DNA from: Massalongia carnosa
Taxonomy: Eukaryota
Length of the DNA stretch: 64,000 nucleotides
NCBI GenBank assembly: GCA_965645245.1
Contig: OZ287073.1
Coordinates: 1,860,001-1,924,000, forward strand
Direction: 5' to 3'
The stretch's first letter is position 1; every line of letters starts with the position of its first letter. A program made the position numbers and the translations under genes. Positions 43,209 through 59,300 of the stretch are shown in pieces. Under the pieces are notes generated by a model, which saw only the letters and a list, made by a program, of their open reading frames with translations, ran no database searches and was not told the DNA's origin.

Positions 43209-46200
43209 CCAAACGCTCCCAATGATGGCTTCACTTGAATCAAACCATAAGCCTCGCGGTTCGGGATTCCTCAATGACACCTTCAGAAAATTAGACAACC
43301 TTATCCTATCGGATTGCAGCAGCCCTATTACCCAATTTCGTGCCACGGTCAATAAGCTTCGCACCTTGTCAAGCAAGCTAAGCCTGGACGAAAACTGGCT
43401 TATCTATCGCTTTCATACCAATTTATGCCTCGAATACAACAGCTATTTTGAACGATACGCTCAGGATCATGATCCTTTCAATGAAATGGGTGAACCCAAG
43501 CACACATTAAGTCAGGCTATGCAGCATTTCCAAAACACGGTGACCAACCCAAGCAAGTCCAACGATAAGGCCGTAATCGCAATGGCAGCTGTTTCAAACG
43601 CGGAACTCAACCTGGAACAGCCCATTCTCGAATCATCACCAAGACCATCAAGTATTGCAACCACTGCGGAAAGGACTATCACGTAGAGAGCGAGTGTCAT
43701 GAAAAATATCCACACCTCGTTAACCAAGACTCACGGCGTAAGTCCAATAAGCGTCGCAGGAGTTCCAAAAGTCAAGGTCAAAGTCAAAAGCCAACCGGAA
43801 ACAATGACTCAACCAAAGGAGCCTTCTGCGCCTACATAGCCACCGCGGATATAACCAAAATATTTAAGCTCTAGATCTGTGACTCTGGAACTAGCCAACA
43901 TATTACCCACGATCGCTCCATCTTCACCTCATTCAAGACATCCGATTGCCCACCAATTCAAGGCATTGGAGGAGTATTAATTCCCAAGGAATAGGTAACA
44001 TCATGTTGCTGTGTGCCGGTAACAAGGGTCTTCGGGAGTTCCCTCTTTTCGATGTGTTATACGTTCCGGACGGAGGCCTAAATCTCATTTCCCAAGGACA
44101 ATTACAACGAGATGGATGTCCCCTGAAGATCGTACCAGAGTGAATTGAAATCGGGAACTATGGTATCACTGCTCGCCGCCAGGACAACAATCTGTATACC
44201 CTGAACATGTGGAACGTCTCTGAAGCCGCTCTCGCTCTCGCTGCAATTAATAGCGAGGCGATAAAAATGTAGCACGCTCGTTTAGGCCATCTTGGAAATC
44301 AAAACATTCTCAAGCTCGCTGGCATGTCAAAAGGAATGGACCTCACCAAGCCCCCGCCCCAAGACGCCTGTCCTCCGTGCGCCATCGCTCAGTCCCAAGT
44401 AGAATCACACCGGGCCCCCATCCAACTAGGCAAGCACCCGCTGGAATTAACTCAGCGATGTCTAGGACCTTTCCCAGAAGCCTTGAATGGCGCCAAATAT
44501 TTGGTGACTTTTCTTTGCGATTTCGATAAACGGTCTCACGTCACTTTACTGCGCGTCAAAAGCGGAGTCCTTCAAGGCTTTAAAAACTACAAGAAGCAAA
44601 ACGAATATGTGGACAAACGAGTTAAGCGCTTGCGATCTGACTGCGGGGATGGGTATGACTCCAAAGACTTCGAGAATTTCATAAACGAGCATGGCATTCA
44701 GTGGGAGCCTACCGTACCGGGAAATCCACTCATGAACGGGACAGCCGAGCGCCTAGGTCAAACGCTTCACAAGTTAGCCAGCACCATGCGAGAAGGCGCT
44801 AAACTCGACATCAAATATTGGGCTGAAATGGTTCTCACCGCCAACTACCTACGAAATCGACGACCGACTGCGGGACGCTCCATCACCCCCTATGAGTCTC
44901 ACACCGGCAGCCTACCAGAACTAGGACATCTAAGGATAGATAATAGGATAGACTGGCTATGCGCAAAATCGCAAGCCCTCCACCGGATGGAAGAAATTTC
45001 AGGAACAAACCACCAAATGTACTGTAGTAGGATACGAAGGCGATCACATCTATCGAATGATAAATCCATGGGGCGCGGTCATGCGTTATTCCAATGTTCA
45101 GTGGATAGATAACAATCCCCCAACTCCTCCTTCCTTATCATTCTCTTAAACTAAAAGAGCCCTACATGTTGGACAGTCAGGACCGCCCACGAGAAAGCAA
45201 AAAAATTACCCATCATACGGACGCCCCTCATACGGACTTAGTCGACGCTCATGAATCCATAGAATCAATTCCCACTGGACCTCTCCCACCCAACGCTAGA
45301 CAAGAGGCATTGGCAAACCAACGGCCCATTGAGCCTCGGTCCCAGGCAGATATCCTCTCTAAGCACTCAGAACTTCGTGCCCCCTTGCCTGACCCACTAG
45401 CTTTTTTGGCCCTTCTTGCTAGAGCCAATGACCCGGAGCCATACGAGCCTAAATCCTATAAACAGGCCGTAGACAGTCGGTAAGAAAAGGATTGGCGAAG
45501 GGCAATGCAGGAAGAAATCGACTCTATCAACGGAAATAATACCTGGATCCTCACCTCCCTGCCCTCGGACCGCAAAGCCCTGCGAGGCAAATGGGTTTAT
45601 AAAATCAAACGAGTCCCGGCTGGCGAGATTCTTCGTTACAAGGCTCGATGGGTGGTCAGAGGCTTTGAGCAACGTGAAAGCATTAACTACAATGAGACTT
45701 TTGCTTCAGTAGTGAAGCCAATGAGCTATAAAGTCATCTTCGCTATCGCTGCAGCTAATGACTGGGAAATTCACCAAATGGACGTAAAATCAGCCTTCTT
45801 GTACGGAAGGGTGGACGAGGAAATCTACGTGGAGCAACCAACCGGTCTGGATGACGGGTCAACGAGAGTTTGCAAGTTGAAGAGAGCTCTTTATGGCCTG
45901 AAACAGTCGTCTAGAATCTCGTATGACACGATCACTATTTTTTTCAAGTCTCATGCATGACTTCGTTTGAGTCAATGCCGACCTTAGCGTTTTTGTTAAA
46001 GAAGGGGTTATCGTAGCCATTTATGTCGATGATTTAATCATCACTGGCCCTTCTTCTTCCAAGATACAACGTGTCAAGAAACTGCTGAGCGACGAGTTCT
46101 CGATGTTTAATTTAGGGCCTATCAATTACTACCTGGGCATGACGATAACTCGGGATCGGGCCAACAGGATTCTTCGCCTTGGTCAGTAGGCCTATCTGGA

Positions 46201-47489
46201 AAAAGTAATACGCGACCATGGCATGTGGGACACTTAACCCGTGGCTACCCCGATGGATGGGCGACTGGAGGCTGCACCAGAGGGCCATTAGGCCACAGAT
46301 GACTCTCGCCTCCGCTACCAATCAGCGATGGGCTCTCTCATGTATGCTATGCTAGCCACCAGGCCTGACTTAGCCTACATCGTACCGGTGGTCAGCCGCC
46401 ATGCCTCGAACCCGACCGACACGCACTGGAAGGCAGTCAAACGCATCTTTCGATACATCAAGGGCACTCTTCCGTTGCAGTTAACATACAAAGGTCGCCT
46501 ACAACCCTTGAACTGTTACACTGACGCGGATTGGGCCGGAGATCATCATACCCGAAGGTCTACTACCTCTGGCTTCGTGTTTAATGTTAGTAGTGGCGCT
46601 ATTAGCTTGTCTTCCAAACGACAACTGACCGTAGCCCTATCTTCATGCGAAGTCGAGTACATGGGTCAGGCCCAAGCCACCAAGGAAGCCGCCTGGTTGT
46701 CTAGTCTTCTCGACCAACTCTCAACACCTCAAGTCCTTGGGAATAACTATATCCAAACCCAGAGCACCTCTGTAGCCCTTGCCTACTTGCCTATATCTTT
46801 CGCCCTAAACGCTATCATCATTCACTGCGACAATCAAGGAGCAATGGCTTTGGCCAAAAATCCCCAGGCACACGCGTGGAGCAAGCATATCGACATCCAA
46901 TGGCACTACCAAAGAGAGAAGATCGAAGACAAATTAGTGGAATTTCGCTATGTTCCTACCGAAGAGCAGGTAGCTGTCGGCCTAATCAAGGCCCTACCAA
47001 ACGATAAATTTGTTGTCTTTCGAAGGGCTTTAGGCTTAAAATAAAACCAGAAGCCCTTTGTCGTAAAAATCCGACCTTAACCCCCGAAAAAAAGTATCAC
47101 CCACAGCTGAGCCTGCGGGGGTGTTTTCGTACATCACCAGCAGCATTAGCCTGCGGAGTACACTGACTCACCTGCAGGTGATCCACTAGGAAGCATGATA
47201 TTATACTGGAGTATGTGGGAGTTATTGAATTTCTCTTTATCATGTGGGAGAGCTATTTCAGTGCCTGAGTGGGAGTGTTAGAATGTACAAATCAGGCTAC
47301 TTCATTTCAGCCGCACTCACCTTCTACCGCACGAGTATGGCGCACGCTAACTAATGGCTAGACGTATCGCTAGTCTAATACTAGGATACCGTACATTGTC
47401 TATAAATCTAGTTATTCCCACTATATAGAACAAAAGCAAGCGTTCTATCCTCTATTGACTATATATTACTATACTGCCTTTTGATAACA
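43209..47489 (+). mobile_element. Degenerate, 5'-truncated Ty1/copia element with 3' LTR 47276-47489
   Basis: Fragmented gag/PR/IN/RT/RH (RSDCGDGY, MDVKSAFLYG, YVDD, YTDADWAG), many stops and frameshifts, PPT GAGTGGGAG, LTR TGTTAG...ATAACA. Confidence 0.9.
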
Positions 47490-47663
47490 TCAGGTTCTGA
47501 ACATCAGACGGCCCATTTCCGAAATGCTACTTATGCTACTTTCGGGTTGAAAGATGCAGATATGTCAAGGGACTGTGAACTAAGCTGAGGAGAAGATAAT
47601 TAACCTCGACTATGATTTCCCTTACTGTGGCGGGCTTTATCACGATATGAAGATCAGCCGGTC

Positions 47664-47860
47664 ATGAATGACAACAGGCTTGCAGCGTTCAATGAATACG
47701 AAGTCATCCTGAGAATGATCGAGGATGCTAAATTGGTAGATCTGGAGGCACAAGATCAGCACTGGCGGACAGCGTTAATTTGGGCAGCAGAACTAGGCCA
47801 CGAGAAGGTTGTGGAGATGTTGCTGGACAAGGGCGCGGAGTTGAATGCTCAAGGGAGAGG
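47664..47860 (+). pseudogene. Ankyrin-repeat gene fragment
   Basis: DQHWRTALIWAAELGHEKVVEMLLDKGAELNAQ. Confidence 0.7.
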
Positions 47861-48114
47861 GTTTGACGACTTCCTACTATTTGGAACAGTTAGAGCGCAC
47901 CGCTTAGGCCTCTCTGCTAACGCGGGCGAGTGTAAAACCTAGGGGTAGTCGCGTGCGTCAGCGAGCTCGATAATTCTGTCATTCACGTTCTAAACTTTCA
48001 GCTTTGGAGAAAATAAAAAGTAGTATTCTTACACTGCCTTGTTCATCAACCGCTCAGAAGATCAGGTTAGGTTTCAAGGGTAATAGGATTTAGTTCTGAA
48101 TTATATGAATCGCT

Positions 48115-50842
48115 TTAAGACTCCAATGATAAACTCTCCATCTGCCACTCATTGAGATACTTAAGCGAAGACTCTGTATGAGAATGTTGAGGACCCAGCT
48201 TGTGTTTTTGGAGCTGAAAACATTCCTTTAGCAGTGAGAGAGCCTCATCATTGCGGCCTTGAGACTTCCACGTGAATGCAAGGTTGCTCATGCTAGTCAG
48301 CGTGTCTGGATGCTCCGCCCCTAGCACCCTCTTTCTCGTCTCCATCACTTGCACCTCCAGCTCTTCGGCCTCCGTCCCTCGTCCTTGATCCCTGTACGTC
48401 GACGCAAGATTGGCCATGCTAGTCAGCGTGGAAGGATGCTCCGCCCCTAGCACCCTCGCACTCGTCTCCATCACTTGCACCTCCAGCTCTTCGGCCTCCG
48501 TCCATCGTCCTTGATTCCAATACGTCGACGCAAGATTGGCCATGCTAGTCAGCGTGGAAGGATGCTCCGCCCCTAGCACCCTCTTTCTCGTCTCCATCAC
48601 TTGCACCTCCAGCTCTTCGGCCTCCGTCCATCGTCCTTGATTCCTGTACGTCGACGCAAGATTGGCCATGCTGATCAGCGTGGAAGGATGCTCCGCCCCT
48701 AGCACCCTCTTTCTCGTCTCCATCACTTGCACCTCCAGCTCTTCGGCCTCCGTCCATCGTCCTTGATTCCTGTACGTCGACGCAAGATTGGCCATGCTAG
48801 TCAGCGTGGAAGGATGCTCCGCCCCTAGCACCCTCGCACTCGTCTCCATCACTTGCACCTCCAGCTCTTCGGCCTCCGTCCATCGTCCTTGATTCCTGTA
48901 CGTCGACGCAAGATTGGCCATGCTGATCAGCGTGGAAGGATGCTCCGCCCCTAGCACCCTCGCACTCGTCTTCATCACTTGCACCTGCAGCTCTTCGGCC
49001 TTCATCCATCGTCCTTGTCCCTTGTATGCCAAGGCTAGCATAGCCATACTATTCAATGTCTCTTCATCCTCTGGACCAAGCACTTTTTGCCTGGTTCTTT
49101 TTGCTTTTAGGGCCATTGTCGCTGCTTCAGCGTAACTCCCTTTCGCCCACGCATACCATGCAGCGTGATATAGTATCAAGGCCCAGTCTTGTAATGAGCT
49201 TTCGACAGCTGGCTCCTGCGCTACTGCCGACTTTGCGTGAGGAAAAAGCGCTTGACACTTTGTCCAATTCTCGTAATTTCCCGTCGGAAATACTGTACAG
49301 AGATTCTTGATGTATTGCTGCTTCCATCTTTCGAGCTGATTGGATGCTTCTAGCCACTTTCTGATCGCTAGCTGCACTAGCCCGTGCATCTCAAAGGTGG
49401 TTTCATCTATGCTGATGGTGATGAACGAGAAGTTTCTCAAGACAAGTATGTCGTCTTCAAACTCGTCGACGCTGGAATCGGATACGGTATCCTTATTGCT
49501 ATCGTCTTCGTGGTCATCATCTTCGTCATTTCCAGCATTTTCTCCCGTATTTTCATTTCCTGCCTCGTTTTGTGTCTTGAGTAAAGCCTCAGGAATTCCC
49601 TGTCGATCGAAAAAGCTCATAAGCGACAGCAGATTAGCTGCCGAAGGCTTGATCTGATGAATATGATCAAACGATATTTGCCAGGTTATAATGATTGAAT
49701 TTTTAGCATCCAGGTCCCTGCGAAGATGTCCCGCTTCGTGATTCAACAGACTGGTCTTTCTTTTATCATTTTTATAGAACTCTTTTATGTATTGTCGAAC
49801 AGAATATCTTGGTACTCTTTGTCGAATGTATGCGGCCGCTTGAACGATGGCAAGCGGCATGAATTCGAGTGCTGCTGCTAGCTCAGCAGTATCATCTCTG
49901 TCCATCTGTTCTCCCAGCTTCTTTTCAAGGAGCGCTAGCGCATGTGTATCGTCCATCGGCTCAACCGGTATTATGTCTCTTTCTTCTGCTAGCCGCAATG
50001 CCACGCTTTTAGTCCGGGAGGTGATGAGAATCGAGCCGTTTCGACTCTGAGGTAGATATGCTAACAGTGATTGCGTGAGCCCGCTTCTAATGCCGCCATC
50101 CTGCGCCTTCTGGCCTGTAGCATGAGTTTCGAAAAGCACAGTAGCTTCGTCGGCATTGTCGAGGACCAGAGCCCACTTTCCGTTCTTTTCGTCGCGTAAC
50201 CACTTGTCAACTAGCCGGAATATGTCCGCCTTTGGGTCCTCCCTGCCAGGAATCTTGACTTGCTCTGCAACATCCCGATAACCTTGCTCGATACGGGCTG
50301 CATTACTAGCGTGTATCCAGAACACCCACGTCGTCGGCAACTGCTCTCTGATTCGATAGCAGTACTCGATGGCAAGCTGCGACTTTCTTTGCGAAAGTAA
50401 GCTATTAGAACTAGCCTGAGGCCCTTTGGCTTACCCAACGCCGCCTAGGCCGACAAGCGCTACCCTTGATGCTGGCGCGGAGCACTTTTCGTGGATCTGA
50501 TCAAGTAGCGTTCCGCGATCGACGAAATCAGGGTCGCGGGGGAAACGAACAGCAGATGATGGGCTTGGTGGGGTATCGGGTCTTTCTACAAACGCAGAAT
50601 GCTATCAGCCTTGGCTCACAGGACGCTATATTATTGTGAATGGCGACTTGCCTGGATATTGAACAATATTGTTTGTCTGAGAGCCTAATCAGGATTTAGC
50701 ATAAGATCAATATCGATTGAACAGGACGCAAACCAATCACTTTCGCATAGCCTGAGACGTCACCGATCACAGCGCCTTGGTTGCCAGAAATCGTGCCAAA
50801 ATCCTTCGTGCCTGTAGAGACTACTGGCGTGTTACCGGCCAT
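48115..50842 (-). CDS. Fungal NLR: short N-terminal motif - NB-ARC - TPR; exons 50842-50734, 50684-50652, 50585-50435, 50386-48115
   Basis: Splicing (GT-AG, GC-AG, GT-AG) gives an uninterrupted frame; FPRDPDFVDR, Walker A GLGGVGKS, Walker B WALVLDNAD, ILITSR, MPLAIVQAA, MHGLVQ, 42-aa TPR repeats. Confidence 0.93.
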
Positions 50843-51180
50843 TGCTGCGTCGGAAGATTGTAGACAATAGAGCTCGGAGCTATATTGAATAAGACTTGAA
50901 AACCATTACCTTTACCGTGCTCAGGACCGCACCTAGGCTCGGCCGGAAACTCGACGCCCAAGACTTTCTAAAAGCACTGTTCATCTCTAAGTATAAATAT
51001 AGGCACGGACTCGCCGATGGAGGGCCCCCCGCCATCATGCGGGATAGATGGCTGATAGAGCCAAGGCTATGCACGTGCTGAAGCGCCTGATCTCTCCATG
51101 CAGGCGGTATCACAATTATCTCGCATAAGTGCTAAATTTGAAGCACGACCCCTCTGTAGTATTGCGATGACAACGCCAGC

Positions 51181-52442
51181 ATGGCCGAACCGTACGGATT
51201 AGGCGACCCTCTTTGATTCTCCAGACGCGAATATACAGTACGCACCAGATGTCATTTCTCGTCCGGGTTGCTTTGTATTGACCCAACAGTATTGTCTTCG
51301 TCCACGGGCTCGGCGGCGACAGAGTGAAAACTTGGACATGGGAGGGTCGAGATAGATCGCTGTTGTGGCCGCAAGATCTCTTACCTCAAGCCTGCCCAAC
51401 AGCTCGCATCCTTCTTTTGGGTACAATGCGGACTTTGCTCACTTCTATCCGTTTGTTGGACCGAAATTCATCCCGGAGCATTTGACTATTGATGATCACG
51501 CGACTGCAATGTTCCAGAGCCTAACTAATCGGTCTCCGCGAGAAAACCAAAACTGTAGGAATCGGCGCACCCCTACCCTTTCCACCAGAAATATGCTAAT
51601 AGTATGTCTATGTCCAGGCTGAACGGCCGATTATTTTCGTCTCGCACAGCCTAGGGGGTCTCGTGTGCGCCAATGCGTTGTCAAGGCACAATGGTACCGA
51701 CATTGCTAGCACTACCCTCGTAGAGAGAACGATTGGAGTCGTCTTCCTTGGAACGCCCTTTGAGGGATCGTCAAAAGCAAAATGGGGAAGCAGGGCTCTA
51801 CAGATACTGGGCTGGATAAGCACCACGCATAAGCAGGATATAAAGGATCTTGAAGAGCGTTCGGCAAAGCTCATCAGCGTTAACGAGGCCTTTCAGAAAT
51901 TCCTGAAAGCACGGTATCGTTCAGAATCAAGAGAGTTTGTGGAAGTAGCTTGTTTCTTTGAACAGTATGCTATGTATGAGGGAGGGACGATGGGATTTAT
52001 CGTGCCCAAGGAATCGGCTTGCCTGCCTGGTATCGATCCACAGTCGATCCAGGCGAACCATGTTGATATGTGCAAGTTTGAGGATGAAGACCGAGAGGGA
52101 TACAAGAGAGTTTCACAAAAGTTGGTTCAATGGATATCGGATCTTGATAGTCGATCCAAGGGGTCTGGAGAGGATCGCCAGGTCTGACATCTCTTTCGCG
52201 CGCTTGAAGTTAGCTGTTCAACAGAACCATTCGGTTCGTATGGGCGATGTTAACTTTAGGGACAAAATCGATAACAATCGAGGTGTGATTATGGGTCATG
52301 CAAATAGTACGGCCACAGAAGGGGTTAAAATATCTGGGAGTAGTATCACTGTAAGGATCACCTATCCTTTCGATAGCGATGTACAAGCTGACAGAAAGTA
52401 AAGAATAGTTATCATGGCATTAACCCAAAAGACTCTGTGTAG
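51181..52442 (+). pseudogene. SesB-like alpha/beta hydrolase with a C-terminal G/N/S-rich extension; 5' exons carry small frameshifts
   Basis: IVFVHGLGGD, WPQDLLP, ARIL..GYNAD, FVSHSLGG, GVVFLGTPFEGS, CFFE, ANHVDMCKF; predicted last exons 52225-52350 and 52404-52442; indels near 51208, 51413 and 51522. Confidence 0.85.
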
Positions 52443-53099
52443 ACCGAGGGATAGGCAATCATTGCGGAGTCATTCTAGGAAACTATTCAGGGACATGAAA
52501 TAATCAATTGACTTTTTGACATCTTTCAAAACAAAGTTTTTTTGCGCAGTCATCAGCTTCGGGTGATAGTTGACTCCTTGTGAGACGTGAAGAGCTCGCA
52601 TGACAAGAGTTCCAGGCTTCAAATATGCCGCAGCTAGAGGGGGCCTCTTAGCAGAGAATGCTTATCCAACTTATGTCCGATCTCTGAATCCTGCCCTTGC
52701 TTCCGTAAGCACTTCAGAACAAAAGTCTGACAAGATCTCAAATCATTATTGAATGAATAAGCATCTTACTTCATTGAGCTACGTAGATGCAATGATGGAG
52801 ATTTTCAAAGACGTACAATCAGTGCTTACGCCTGTCGAGCCTTTGATAAAGTACGCTAAAACTGTAAAGCGATTGAGCATCACAATCGACGACATAGCTG
52901 AAGATGAGACGAGCAATTACAATACATCAAGTCCTGACATCTATTCCTATCATTTTCATTATGTCAGGTCAGTACGTTGACACTATTGAGATTTGTTTCG
53001 ACATTTCAAAGCCTTTAAGCAAGGACTGAGGTTGACAGAAAAACCCTCACTGATCTAAGTGATAATTGACTTGCGATTCACAGAGATGAAGTGCAAGCG

Positions 53100-53361
53100 A
53101 CATCAAAAGAAGATCATGATCAAGCATTGCAGCTGCTGCTGAAGAAAAGAGCCGATGAGAACGCTCGAGGTGGAGACATTGACGATGCAACTGCAGACGG
53201 CGTCATTTAATGATCATGATCGAGTGATGCAGATATCGCTCGACAAAGAGGCTAATCTCAACGCACGAAGTGAAGGCTATGACTACACATTGTGGACGGC
53301 ATCAGCAAAAGGTCATGATAAGGAGATGCAAATGTTACTTGCCGCTGGTGCAATAGGGTAG
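53100..53361 (+). pseudogene. Decayed ankyrin-repeat remnant
   Basis: LQTASFNDHDRVMQISLDKEANLNA...LWTASAKGHDKEMQMLLAAGA. Confidence 0.65.
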
Positions 53362-55690: not shown

Positions 55691-56399
55691 TGTACAGTAC
55701 TACTGTAAGCGATTGCGAGTAGCTCTCAGGGCCTCTAGCTCGGTGCTAAAACTGCGCCGGGAGCTAGCCCAGAGCGCCCGAAGCAAGTTAGCAAAAATGG
55801 CATGCTCAGACGTAAGAAACCTTGTCCATTCTGACGCCTTTGCATTCCTGCTAGTCAACAGTGAGCATGAACTCCATCGTGAAAATCCTCCAAACCCATC
55901 TGATCGCGATGATGCTGTCACGGACGTTCGGATGATTTCCTCCGAGCCCTTCTTTCGTGGCGAGCGCTTTCGTCGATTCCGTCATGTTGACACCGGCCCC
56001 TTCGTCCTCCTGAATCACGCACAGCGCCAGCGGTTCGTCCGACGCATCATGAAGTAGCTGCGCCGTTGACGGTCCGCATCAGTATATTCGCACGTTCATC
56101 GGCCTTGTCTTTTGGGCCCGGTCGTTGCTGTGAAGTTTTACGAGCGCTTGATCGAATTCGAAGCTCTCCCTGGTCAGCTTACTGCCTTTAAATATATCTA
56201 TGATCCTTGCCTTCTCATTTACTTTTTCAAATAAAATGCTCGCTGGGAGAAGACGGGAGCGCCTGGACCAAAACCTTACACCCATCAAGCCCAAGCCCAC
56301 CTCCTAGGCGGTATTGGCTGCTACGACCCTCCCAGAGTCCTGTGCGCCCTCGAAAACGCGGGTGAGGGCTTGGCCGTGCACGGCTTGGGAAGGACATCC

Positions 56400-59300
56400 C
56401 GCCGCGGGCCTGCTGGTAGCTTGGGTTGTGGATCCAGATAATTACGGTAATCTACTCCCGCTCGGATGCATCGGTGAGCTACTGCTTGAAGGGCCACTTA
56501 TCTTCCAGGGCTACCTAAACGATCCAGGGAAGACTGCAGCCGCGTTTTTTGAGGACCCAGCATGGCTACTGCAAGAGGCGCCGGGTCGGCTAGGACGATA
56601 TGGACGACTCTATAAGACAAGTGACCTGGTGCGGTACAACAAAGATGGGAGCCTGACGTTCATTGGCCGAAAAGATGCACAAGTTAAGATCCGCGGACAA
56701 CGAGTTGAGCTTGGAGAGGTTGAGTACCGCGTGCAGGAGTGCCTACCGCAAGCGAGACAGGTTGTGGTTGAAGTCATTATGCCGCTAGGGGAGAATCAAA
56801 GCCTAGTGTTAGCGGCGTTCGCCAAGATAAACTACAATGTGACAGAAACCAACGAGGCAGAGTCTACCATGGCCAATATTCTTCTCATTACTGCTGATGT
56901 AGAGGACAAGCTGGCAAAGCATCTACCGAGGTATATGGTGCCAACAGTATTTTTTTCCATGAGGGAGCTACCTATGACAGTCACAGGAAAGATAAACCGG
57001 AGACGACTGTGTGAGATTGGTGGGTCATTCTCTGTTCAACAGCTGGCTGAGATGCAGACAGCTGGGCAAGACAAAAAGAGGCAGCCGAAGTCAGAGGAAG
57101 AGTGGCAGACGCAGAGGATATGGGGCCAGGTGCTCAACATTAACCCGACGACTATTGAGCTTGACGATAGTTTCTTCCGGCTTGGAGGTGACTCAATTGC
57201 AGCAATGAAACTTGTGAGTGAGGCTCAAAAGATTGGCGTCAAACTAGCAATGACAAACATCTTCCGCCATCCTCGGTTGGAGCATGTGGCACACCAGGGG
57301 CTTGGTTTAGCGGATGACCTTCTGGAGTATATCATACCATTTTCTCTTCTGGGTAACAGCTTTGATATCACCTTGCTCATCCAGAATATTTCGATTCAGT
57401 GTCAATTAGACCCAGCTACTATTGAGGACGCATATCCATACACTCCACTTCAAGGAGGTCTTTTGTCTCTGTCATCAAAGCGATCAGGAGACTACATTAT
57501 GCAAAGTACCCTAGAATTATCTTCAGACAGCACAATCGGGGCTTTCTACAATACATGGAAGGAAGTAGCCGGGACAATGGAAATCTTGCGTACAAGAATT
57601 GTTCAGCACAATGATATTGGCCTTTTGCAGGTGGTCTTGGACGAAGACATCCATTGGATTGAGGCAACAGGACTAAATGAGTATCTCCAAGCTGACAGAA
57701 AAGAGTCTATGGAGATAGGTCAGCCGCTCGCCCGGTATGCTCTTGTCAAAGATGATATAGGTATATACAAGTGGTTCGTGTGTACGGTACAACACGCCAT
57801 CTATGATGGCTGGTCACTGCCTCTGATTATGAACGCAGTTAATCGGGTATATTGTGGTGAGGCGCTTGAGTCTAGGCCTCAGTTCAAAACGTTTATCAAA
57901 TATATCGATGAGCAAGACGATAAAAAGGTGGTGGATTACTGGCAACAAGTGTTGGCAGACTGCAATTGTACACCGTTCCCAGCCCTCCCGCCATCTGTGC
58001 AACAGCCGGTGGCAGACATAGTAATAGAGCATCAATTCCTATTGCCCCAAAGACAGTCTCTGGATATTACAACATTAACGCTTATCCGCGCTGCATGGGC
58101 CTTGGTCACTAGCCATATGACAGACTCAGATGATGTTTTGTTTGGCGTCACAGTGTCTGGAAGGAACGCGCCTGTTGTTGGCATTGATGAGATGGCAGGC
58201 CCAACAATCGCCACGGCTCCAGTGCGCATAAAGGTAGCCAGCAACCAAAGAGTTTCAGAATATTTGGAGGCAGAACAACGACAAGCAATAGATATGATCC
58301 CTTTTGAGCAGACTGGCTGGCATCAAATTGCCAAGACGGGCCCTGATAGTAAGTAATCGTGCATGTTCTAAACGCTGCTTATCATTTAGCTGCAGGATAA
58401 TGACTCTACCCAGGATCTGCTTGGGAAGTGGCAGGATAGCAGCCAACAACAGTGATTCAGCACATATGCTCTTATGCTTGAGATACGGCTTGACGCAGAC
58501 AACATTACAGCTTCAGCTAGCTTTGACTCAAGGGTGATCGAGCCGTGGGTGGTGCAGAATTTACTAGAGCGGCTTGAATCTGTAATAGGCCAGTTTGACA
58601 ATGCGAATTCTAACCGGACGTTAAAGGAGATCAAGATGGTCACACAGAAAGACCTCAAAGAGATATGGGAATGGAATAGCATTGTTCCAGTGTCAGTCGA
58701 GCGATGCGTCCACAAGATGATTGAGGACCAGGCACAGGCTCAGCCTAGCGCACCAGCCGTGTGCGCGCGTGGGATGGTGAGCTAACATACAGCGAACTAA
58801 ACCAGCTTGTCATGGGACTAGCGGGCCGGCTTGTCGAGCTCGGTGTCAGGCCGGACGTTCTGGTGCCACTCTGTTTTGAGAAGTCAATGTGGACGACAGT
58901 CACGATACTTGGCGTGCTTAAGGCGGGCGGCGGCTTTGTCTTGCTTGACCCCTCACATCTTGAGCAACGTCTTCAGGACATCGTCAAACAAACCAAAGCA
59001 AGCCTGGTCCTATTTTCTCTCTCCAACTATGCTCTGAGCTCGCGGCTAGCGCAACAGGTTGTCACTGTCAGTTCGGAATTTTTTGCAGACCTGGGTGATG
59101 AACCGATTAAGCACCTTTCTGGCCCCAGCCCATGGTCTGTCATGTATGTGGTTTTCACATCAGGCAGTATAGGGACACTAAAAGGGGTAGTGATAACCTA
59201 CAGGCATGTGGCTTCAGCTCTCCACTATCAGCTAAGACTCCGAGGATTGACGGACAGACTCAAGAGTCTTTGATTTTGCATCCTAAGGCTTTGATGCAAC

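Follow-up and report, generated by a model that had tools for sequence, protein, structure and literature searches.

Signalling by amyloid templating from fungal NLRs is known for a few motif families, namely HRAM, PP, sigma and PUASM, together with the provisional GDQN. The sigma motif is described as consisting of the submotifs GxGxQFN and GGTQNINT, repeated three times (PMC3321046), the PUASM pattern FxGxGxQxxGxGxF is reported as tied to PNP_UDP effectors (PMC9815663) and the effector to which the GDQN pattern belongs is SesA (PMC12261475). SesB-like hydrolases that carry PP tails (SBP) are known as well (PMC5485727; rows of the S5 Table). The locus described here lies in a stretch of 64,000 nucleotides from Massalongia carnosa, the whole of which is referred to as the window, and is probably a two-gene fungal NLR amyloid-signalling module of the same kind as NWD2/HET-S, PNT1/HELLP-SBP and HET-eN/SesA-SesB, with a motif family that matches none of those tested and with an effector that has decayed. 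Its features are as follows.

48115..50842, minus strand: NLR gene (NB-ARC and TPR), 854 aa, from the gene model, Pfam and an N-terminus match to P0162
50842-50734, 50684-50648, 50581-50435 and 50386-48115, minus strand: the four NLR exons, with the stop codon at 48115-48117
50648..50842, minus strand: NLR N-terminal motif, residues 1-47, on exon 1 and exon 2, which the 49-nt intron 50685-50733 separates
50582..50647, minus strand: NLR intron 2, 66 nt, GT-AG, placed by frame logic and needed to link the motif exons to the NB-ARC
48278..49017, minus strand: NLR TPR array, a 126-nt (42-aa) unit repeated 5.9 times without indels and with 94% matches
50843..51180, no strand: divergent intergenic region, 338 nt, ATG to ATG
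51181..52442, plus strand: SesB-like alpha/beta-hydrolase gene, start ATG 51181, frame-broken in exons 1 and 2
51181-51237, 51290-51554, 51618-52181, 52225-52350 and 52404-52442, plus strand: the hydrolase exons
52182..52224, plus strand: hydrolase intron, 43 nt, which puts the tail motif in frame, from X15 record 10 and colinearity with P0001
52225..52442, plus strand: hydrolase C-terminal tail motif, about 45 residues, on exon 4, the 53-nt intron 52351-52403 and exon 5 with the stop

The receptor is a fungal NLR of the NB-ARC/TPR type, a P-loop NOD followed by TPR_10 repeats. By frame logic ATG 50842 is the only start codon able to reach its NB-ARC, and three introns, all GT-AG (50685-50733, 50582-50647 and 50387-50434), lead from there to a 771-codon ORF. 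The ORF without the P-loop exon matches TPR_10 at 2.5e-101 and NB-ARC at 0.0031 in Pfam, and the Walker A is regained by splicing of intron 3. An earlier note on this DNA had claimed that the NLR has no effector domain, and Pfam indeed finds NB-ARC and TPR alone; the N-terminus is instead a 47-residue extension, followed by a Pro-rich linker and then the Walker A. The spliced 47 residues given in that note are reproduced by the gene model and are near-identical to the N-terminus of an annotated protein, P0162 (source name Lobaria immixta), which has an NB-ARC at 3.5e-8 in Pfam. A GC-AG form of intron 2 was considered and dropped, as the GT-AG intron fits P0162 better, its junction Gly-Lys-Pro corresponding to Gly-Arg-Pro in that protein.

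The neighbouring gene is a SesB-like alpha/beta hydrolase, as judged by its fold, its G-x-S-x-G elbow and its homology to SesB. Its domain matches DUF676 and Abhydrolase_6 in Pfam, the nucleophile elbow H-S-L-G-G is invariant and one homologue, P0032, bears the source name SesB protein; a Foldseek search with the model returned generic alpha/beta-hydrolases alone and no specific enzyme match. In the AF2 model the hydrolase domain is folded with confidence, and pLDDT drops to 36-53 over residues 289-354. The gene is divergent from the NLR and, as had been claimed, 338 nt away (ATG 50842 to ATG 51181), and the intergenic region presumably acts as a shared promoter of both genes; the NLR RNA contig from a related lichen extends to 51017, inside this region. 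Removal of 52182-52224 and of the 53 nt at 52351-52403 yields exactly the tail that had been predicted from the last exons, and this tail is colinear with those of the homologues P0001 and P0002.

RNA from a close relative bears on most of these exons. Splicing of the 43-nt intron had been set beforehand as a point on which the whole reading could fail, and it is spliced in the relative's RNA contigs: in X15 record 10 the gap amounts to 46 nt interrupted by 3 letters, which leaves a net 43. The same contig lacks introns 2 and 3 of the hydrolase and runs from exon 1 straight to 51290, so that all of introns 1 to 3 are spliced. For the NLR a sole RNA contig was seen (X15 record 9, from a related lichen metatranscriptome), in which introns 1 and 3 are spliced out but intron 2 is retained.

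The first reading overlooked three frame-breaking indels in the 5' half of the hydrolase, each of which was assessed by the depth of read-derived contigs.

51206..51210, plus strand: frameshift 1, CC (two bases) missing relative to runs X2 and X5
51409..51413, plus strand: frameshift 2, one T missing
51519..51527, plus strand: frameshift 3, a CTAA tandem duplication that adds four bases

At the first site the CC is present in X2 (69/69 of depth) and X5 (432/432) and absent from X1 (0/4544). The T at the second site is present in X5 (336/336), X15 (16.6/16.6) and part of X1 (404/2983) and absent from X2 (0/62), and the four bases of the third are left out in X2 (62/62), in part of X1 (2184/5432) and X5 (393/979), and never in X15 (0/16.6). 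Given these three indels the hydrolase copy here is probably a pseudogene allele, and the module has probably decayed on the effector side in this genome with the NLR still intact. It could be argued that the organism has an intact hydrolase and that the indels are assembly or consensus errors in the record, as each of them is absent from at least one other run, two of the three sit in short T or C runs and the window also lacks a GAA codon found in every run compared. This would seem unlikely, however: the X1 contigs side with the window at the CC site, mostly do so at the T site and do so for about 60% at the 4-nt duplication, X2 likewise lacks the T at frameshift 2, a 4-nt tandem duplication is untypical of homopolymer error and the adjoining NLR ORF of 854 codons is free of such breaks. 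A decayed effector beside an intact NLR would illustrate the turnover of modules within a species.

It is confirmed that one motif is present in two versions, as the 47-residue N-terminus of the receptor and as the tail of about 45 residues of the hydrolase. Its core on the NLR is N-x-G-A-V-I-G, followed by K-V-I-G-S-Q-T-N-N, and the approximate consensus on the effector side is [ML]-G-D-V-x-[FY]-x3-I-x-N-N-x-G-V-V-M-G-H-A-x-S-T-A-x-D-G-V-R-I-x-G-S. The receptor-side motif is the effector-side motif with a 4-residue gap, and in alignment A1 the two are equal in length. What they share, N-x-G-h-[VI]-h-G, has the spacing of PP/RHIM without the central Gln, at the position of which all 21 rows of A1 have Val or Ile, and the description of a PP/RHIM-like core that lacks the Q is therefore upheld.

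The evidence that the two ends belong together comes from profiles of one side searched against the other. An effector-only profile was built from 17 hydrolase tails of other species. Among the 2592 six-frame ORFs of the window its best match is the hydrolase tail (9e-21), with the ORF of NLR exon 1 in second place (E 0.028), and among 121 NLR N-termini it ranks the window NLR first (2e-4), followed by P0100 (5e-4) and P0162 (5e-3), with all remaining N-termini, including those of PP type, at E>=0.59; these cross-profile scores are modest (9.7-14.2 bits). In the reverse direction an NLR-only profile matches 21 effector-type sequences at E<=1e-3 among 51 library hits, and the motif claimed to be common to NLR and hydrolase is accordingly recognised from both sides. 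The motifs are short and compositionally biased, and one might suppose that unrelated neighbours had come to resemble each other by chance from low-complexity composition. We give this hardly any credence in the face of the reciprocal recognition, of the recurrence of the head-to-head layout on independent contigs (NLR-profile E of 4e-19 for L001 and 6.6e-4 for L005), and of the combined profile finding just 51 hits at E<=1e-3 in 1.84 billion protein representatives, nearly all of them hydrolase-type or NLR-type.

Those 51 hits comprise 12 with similarity to the hydrolase domain, six NLR-type N-termini, one likely chance match (P0209) and, for the rest, short tail-exon ORFs. Among the hydrolase homologues that stand alone (344-431 aa) 30 of 32 have the tail motif at E<=1e-3, 17 of the 30 being inside the profile and 13 outside it, and 0 of 12 have it among the longer homologues, P0033-P0044, which are NLR-domain fusions, SERAC1-named proteins and unnamed proteins of 509-581 aa. 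In these searches the motif occurred nowhere but on SesB-like hydrolases and at the N-termini of NLRs of two types, NB-ARC/TPR and NACHT/ANK, the latter including proteins of Aspergillus nanangensis, Cenococcum geophilum and Dendryphion nanum. In A. nanangensis the NLR and a motif-bearing hydrolase both list a longest contig of 671713, and in D. nanum both list 1860979, equal figures that are a hint of a shared contig in each; the contigs listed for the Lindgomyces NLR P0100 and hydrolase P0005 differ in length.

Co-occurrence of the motif in NLR/effector neighbours elsewhere, which the earlier note had anticipated, is seen in metagenomes. In 5 of 24 loci (L001, L004, L005, L016 and L023) the hydrolase has upstream of it a motif-bearing ORF that points the other way, many of the 24 being too short to show a partner ORF. 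At L005 the motif ORF runs into a NACHT/ANK ORF, which makes it a confirmed NACHT-ANK NLR; the partner ORFs of L004, L016 and L023 show neither a NOD nor another Pfam domain in the available sequence, and no motif ORF stands beside the tail-bearing L003, L007 and L008 in the available flank. Motifs of cognate NLR/hydrolase pairs score a sum of 418 vs 314 +/- 32 when shuffled, with 22 of 20000 shuffles reaching 418, a result that relatedness confounds, since clade differences run through both sides, and only four of eight NLRs ranked their own partner first.

A shared terminal sequence might also work without amyloid, by bringing receptor and enzyme together in the usual way (through a docking peptide or beta-strand addition, for instance), or might be a common sorting or modification signal. 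In favour of this, the motif has neither an internal repeat (hhalign of the two tail halves, P 0.29) nor a match to the chains of solved amyloid motifs. Against this, G, N, S and T are abundant in it and hydrophobic residues alternate, it lies at a terminus of each partner, is modelled without structure in the monomer and occurs with NB-ARC and NACHT NLRs; all validated fungal amyloid-signalling motifs are described as having these traits (PMC9815663), and a non-amyloid role is thus very improbable. The reading of the two genes as an NLR/effector amyloid-signalling pair, put forward in the earlier note, is supported by the NLR with a short N-terminal extension and no effector domain, the low-confidence effector tail, the reciprocal profiles and the recurring adjacency.

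The motif was then compared with the named families, by Pfam models, PDB chains and consensus strings, a comparison that the earlier note had proposed for PP, sigma, HRAM and PUASM, and no match was found. None of the Pfam amyloid models for PP, sigma and HET-s matches either version of the motif. The PP model PF17046, which is said to be misnamed SesB (PMC12261475), finds nothing at E<=10 in 15 tails, P0162, P0100 or the window pieces, and matches the positive controls P0045, P0092 and P0154 (6e-9 to 1.5e-5). The sigma submotifs are absent from A1 and PF17106 does not match. There is no match to PF11558, no HET-s-type solved PDB chain at E<=10 and no match to any other PDB chain, and the two 21-aa pseudo-repeats on the effector with one on the NLR that mark HRAM are not seen; a resemblance to the HET-s prion domain was rejected on the grounds of the PDB and PF11558 results and of the missing internal repeat. 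The PUASM pattern as published is absent and the effector is a hydrolase, not PNP_UDP, and the motif fits no consensus string published for PP, sigma, PUASM or GDQN. The motif strings have 0 occurrences in the supplement files of PMC9815663 that were searched, which is weak evidence of absence, and in the rows listed of its S5 Table (27 of 34 for PF05057 and 15 of 15 for PF12697) all motif ids are shared or co-occur with HeLo, SesA or PNP effectors. On these sequence comparisons, in which PUASM and GDQN were compared by consensus only, the motif appears to match no named amyloid-signalling family tested, and is at most a candidate for a new one.

The nearest of these families is PP, and the same mechanism could operate through a motif that is a diverged subfamily of the PP (RHIM-like) motif. 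The spacing N-x-G-h-x-h-G-x3-G is identical to that of PP, the closest NB-ARC/TPR relatives of the window NLR have PP-type N-termini at the same position and before the same Pro-rich linker, and the PP-tailed SBP hydrolases provide a precedent on the effector side. However, the pseudopalindrome NxGxQxGxN centred on a conserved Gln, which defines PP, is missing, the motif is about twice as long (~40 aa vs 17-18), PF17046 hits its three controls and none of the motif-bearing sequences, and the effector profile separates off the PP-type N-termini; we therefore regard descent within PP as somewhat unlikely, though far from negligible. It is quite possible, and is proposed here tentatively, that the motif represents an unnamed amyloid-signalling family of about 40 residues, specific to SesB-like lipases and to the NLRs that go with them, whether NB-ARC/TPR or NACHT/ANK, and found in at least five Pezizomycotina classes by source organism names, in which the central Gln has become Val or Ile.

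By analogy with the published model (as set out in PMC3321046 and PMC5485727), binding of a ligand to the TPR array would cause the NLR to oligomerise, the clustered N-terminal motifs would fold into a cross-beta nucleus, and this would template the hydrolase tails, so that the lipase/esterase domain would cluster and become active, as an effector of cell death or defence. Oligomerisation, templating and activation, like amyloid formation by either motif, are inferred by that analogy. If true, a new family would enlarge the catalogue of amyloid-signalling motifs and allow better annotation of many unannotated short NLR N-termini, the motif being lipase-effector-specific and spread from lichen fungi to Aspergillus and Xylariales. 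As the glycine spacing of PP/RHIM is kept and the supposedly essential Gln is replaced, the motif would be a natural test of the part played by the Gln ladder in RHIM-like signalling amyloids, and a natural variant with which to ask which residues set specificity and cross-seeding barriers between parallel amyloid pathways.

In its layout the locus is closest to the PP module of Chaetomium globosum (PNT1/HELLP/SBP), where again an effector-less NB-ARC/TPR NLR adjoins a SesB-like hydrolase, each partner has one copy of the motif and the core is spaced N-x-G-h-x-h-G; it differs in the motif, as set out above, and in that the window shows no third partner of HeLo-like type. With the sigma module of Nectria haematococca (HET-eN/SesA/SesB, PF17106) it shares a SesB homologue with a C-terminal extension common to the adjoining NLR and a motif length of about 40 aa, whilst neither sigma submotif occurs in it. 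HET-s/HRAM (NWD2/HET-S, PF11558) follows the same signalling logic and has a V-x-h-G element in common with the window motif, but its units are of 21 aa and are doubled on HeLo-type effectors, whereas the window motif is one long unit. Finally, whilst neither the PUASM nor the GDQN pattern fits, both resemble the window motif in being recent additions to the fungal NLR-associated families, each tied to one effector type.

The window DNA is fungal, with protein matches and run labels indicating a lichen-forming ascomycete; the closest annotated relative of its NLR carries the source name Lobaria immixta, and several runs containing the stretch are labelled lichen metagenome. The NLR/hydrolase pair within it is real, conserved and of a known kind, and the structure of its genes, their common motif, the recurrence of the pair and its expression in a relative have all been observed. 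A 771-codon ORF (48115-50430, minus strand) encodes the ARC part of the NB-ARC and a TPR_10 array (Pfam E 0.0031 and 2.5e-101) and lacks a start codon ahead of the P-loop; the spliced product is 854 aa, running from an ATG at 50842 via three GT-AG introns. A GC-AG form of intron 2 was dropped for the GT-AG form, because the Gly-Lys-Pro junction of the latter matches Gly-Arg-Pro in P0162, the L. immixta NLR. This model reproduces exactly the 47-residue N-terminus that the earlier note had claimed, which is followed by a Pro-rich linker and then Walker A, and Pfam finds no effector domain in the NLR, again as claimed. The divergent hydrolase starts at an ATG at 51181, which bears out the 338 nt proposed between the genes, and splicing out introns of 43 nt (52182-52224) and 53 nt (52351-52403) gives the tail that had been predicted for it.

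Features of the NLR/hydrolase pair
50685-50733, minus strand: NLR intron 1, 49 nt, GT-AG
50582-50647, minus strand: NLR intron 2, 66 nt, GT-AG
50387-50434, minus strand: NLR intron 3, 48 nt, GT-AG
51181-51237, plus strand: hydrolase exon 1
51290-51554, plus strand: hydrolase exon 2
51618-52181, plus strand: hydrolase exon 3
52225-52350, plus strand: hydrolase exon 4
52404-52442, plus strand: hydrolase exon 5

The TPR array (48278-49017, minus strand) has 5.9 near-identical 126-nt units with 94% matches and no indels; such highly conserved internal repeats have been described in the sensor domains of fungal NLRs, a pattern that this array fits.

Transcripts come from X15, a lichen metatranscriptome run whose RNA contigs are roughly 90% alike to the window and therefore derive from a relative rather than from the window's organism. 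One plus-strand record (10) skips the 63-nt hydrolase intron, jumps 46 nt, with 3 letters in between, at the site of the 43-nt intron, and has exon 1 attached at 51290 as a loose end; failure to splice the 43-nt intron, which the earlier note had named as counting against the pair, is thus not the case in this relative. A minus-strand record (9) skips NLR introns 1 and 3 and retains intron 2, the removal of which is predicted from frame logic and homology. Record 9 is the sole RNA contig covering the NLR, and in the window such retention would end translation after about 58 residues; it could represent pre-mRNA, regulated retention or a difference specific to the relative.

The claim that both genes have a motif in common holds in both directions, as profiles of either side recognise the other. 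Among 121 NLR N-termini, a profile of 17 hydrolase tails, none of them from the window's species, puts the window NLR first (E 2e-4), the Lindgomyces NLR P0100 second (5e-4) and P0162 third (5e-3), with all PP-type N-termini at 0.59 or worse; among the window's 2592 six-frame ORFs it ranks the tail first and the NLR exon-1 ORF second (0.028). In the other direction, A3, a profile made from nine NLR N-termini, picks up, at E<=1e-3, 21 sequences of effector type among 51 library matches. These cross-profile scores are modest, in line with expectation for motifs of about 40 residues. N-termini and tails align over their whole length in a set of 21 sequences (A1) with one 4-residue gap, G20 being invariant and three further Gly at least 90% conserved.

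A search with the 194-aa hydrolase exon, against longer proteins, gave 44 homologues, 32 of them stand-alone (344-431 aa), one with the source name SesB protein and several with the old name "ribonuclease p/mrp subunit". At the C-terminus they share a conserved tail, which is colinear with the one that splicing gives in the window, and the tail profile matches 30 of the 32 at E<=1e-3 (13 from outside the profile). The 12 longer homologues (P0033-P0044), which are NLR-domain fusions, SERAC1-named proteins and unnamed 509-581-aa proteins, all fail to match it. The NLR-fused forms agree with the dichotomy "in cis versus in trans" set out in the literature. H-S-L-G-G, the nucleophile elbow, does not vary among the homologues, and an AF2 model of one, P0002 (31 sequences), has a confident alpha/beta-hydrolase core and a tail (residues 289-354) at pLDDT 36-53; Foldseek of the hydrolase model returned generic alpha/beta-hydrolases alone, namely thioesterases and monoglyceride lipases. 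One 192-aa protein (P0213) fuses the C-terminal part of the hydrolase, tail motif included, with a Pro-rich linker of NLR type, which suggests a genome with the two genes in tandem, merged by the gene caller. Just 3' of the window's hydrolase stop, in another frame, a short ORF at 52446-52495 (plus strand) ends in a sequence similar to the core of the motif (G-I-G-N-H-C-G-V-I-L-G-N-Y-S-G-T; E 0.009 with A1, 0.068 with the effector-only profile), which may be chance or a relict second copy of the tail.

Against 1.84 billion representative proteins A1 gave 51 matches at E<=1e-3, 12 with hydrolase-domain similarity and 6 with NLR-type N-termini, the remainder being short ORFs of the tail exon alone bar one 1724-aa protein, which looks like chance; no other effector domain occurs among the 51. 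A word-indexed A3 search found NLRs from five named fungi, of NACHT(NPHP3_N)/ANK type in Aspergillus nanangensis, Cenococcum geophilum and Dendryphion nanum and of NB-ARC/TPR type in Lindgomyces ingoldianus and Lobaria immixta, so the motif is found on both NOD types, as are known amyloid-signalling motifs. NLR and tail-bearing hydrolase share a longest-contig value in A. nanangensis (671713) and D. nanum (1860979) and differ in it in Lindgomyces. Of 24 metagenome loci that encode relatives of the hydrolase, many of them too short to reveal a partner, five have a motif-bearing ORF upstream on the opposite strand, so that the expected co-occurrence in NLR/effector neighbours is found elsewhere, with the NLR confirmed at L005.

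Motif-bearing partner ORFs at metagenome loci
L001: NLR-profile E 4e-19
L005: NLR-profile E 6.6e-4; runs on into a 1151-codon NACHT/ANK ORF
L016: 5508-5699, minus strand, 4.3 kb from the hydrolase
L004: 706-903, minus strand
L023: 61-840, minus strand

No Pfam domain follows the motif in the L004, L016 and L023 partners, which are therefore candidate NLRs at most; they could have a different architecture or a NOD hidden by an intron. By eye the sequence after the motif in L016 and L023 looks helical rather than like a NOD. Tail-bearing loci L003, L007 and L008 have no motif partner within the flank covered. Local details co-vary within pairs, as with G-G-V-F-A-G-N on both sides in L004, and summed cognate alignment scores reach 418 against 314 +/- 32 when shuffled (22 of 20000 shuffles reach 418), a clade-confounded excess much of which clade structure alone could produce; the cognate partner comes out first for only four of eight NLRs.

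Three lesions, overlooked by the earlier note, break the reading frame of the window's hydrolase, and all three are polymorphic.

Lesions of the window hydrolase (plus strand), with depth in the aligned runs
Near 51206-51210: two bases missing; CC present in X1 0/4544, X2 69/69, X5 432/432, X15 no cover
Near 51411: one T missing; T present in X1 404/2983, X2 0/62, X5 336/336, X15 16.6/16.6
Near 51521-51525: four extra bases, a CTAA duplication; 4 nt left out in X1 2184/5432, X2 62/62, X5 393/979, X15 0/16.6

An in-frame GAA codon in the lid region, at 51988, is present in all four runs and missing from the window, and X1 is therefore not simply the window's own consensus. That the lesions are assembly errors seems unlikely. 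The spliced NLR frame is uninterrupted, with no indel in an NLR exon among the 12 of 23 indel rows listed, and the locus probably pairs an intact receptor with an effector allele in decay.

Around the pair, ORFs in shifting frames (279, 158, 72 and 250 aa; 44273-47044, plus strand) resemble by eye a degraded polyprotein of Ty1/copia type with integrase and reverse transcriptase. Short flanking plus-strand ORFs (47616-47942 and 53070-53361) appear by eye to be ankyrin-repeat fragments and may be remnants of another NLR-type gene, and a 682-codon plus-strand ORF (56308-58356) likewise looks by eye like part of a non-ribosomal peptide synthetase, in the order adenylation domain end, carrier domain, condensation domain.

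By analogy with published models, from which every step is drawn, ligand-driven oligomerisation of the NLR would gather the N-terminal motifs, which would nucleate a cross-beta fold; this could template the hydrolase tails and so switch on the lipase-like domain.

As far as these comparisons reach, the motif would not seem placeable in any named family. PF17046 (PP), described as "misnamed SesB" in PMC12261475, matches the PP-type N-termini of three positive controls (P0045, P0092, P0154) and, at E<=10, leaves 15 tails, P0162, P0100 and the window pieces all unmatched; neither PF17106 (sigma) nor PF11558 (HET-s) matches the tails, these two NLRs or the window pieces. The motif fits none of the published consensus strings for PP (FxGx(x)NxGLQLxGxNxGxL) and sigma (GxGxQFN and GGTQNINT, threefold; both PMC3321046), PUASM (FxGxGxQxxGxGxF; PMC9815663, section 24) or GDQN (PMC12261475, section 3.3). 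In PMC9815663, six motif strings are absent from the searchable supplements, the hydrolase-associated pairs among the S5 Table rows listed have only ids shared or co-occurring with PP/sigma-type ids, and NLR34 is an unassigned ascomycete motif without a textual consensus. No named family for the motif was found in the available parts of PMC9815663, PMC12261475, PMC5485727, PMC3321046, PMC4518210, PMC12258605 and PMC12881547. A profile search of PDB chains gave nothing relevant, and the tail's two halves are not repeats of each other. The PP/RHIM-like core lacking Gln that had been proposed is borne out, as N-x-G-h-[VI]-h-G-x3-G stands in register with N-x-G-h-Q-h-G-x3-G of PP. None of the 21 aligned sequences keeps the hallmark Gln, and the motif is twice the length of PP. 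Since the core is in register and the nearest NB-ARC/TPR relatives of the window NLR have PP motifs at the same place, a distant relationship to PP is plausible.
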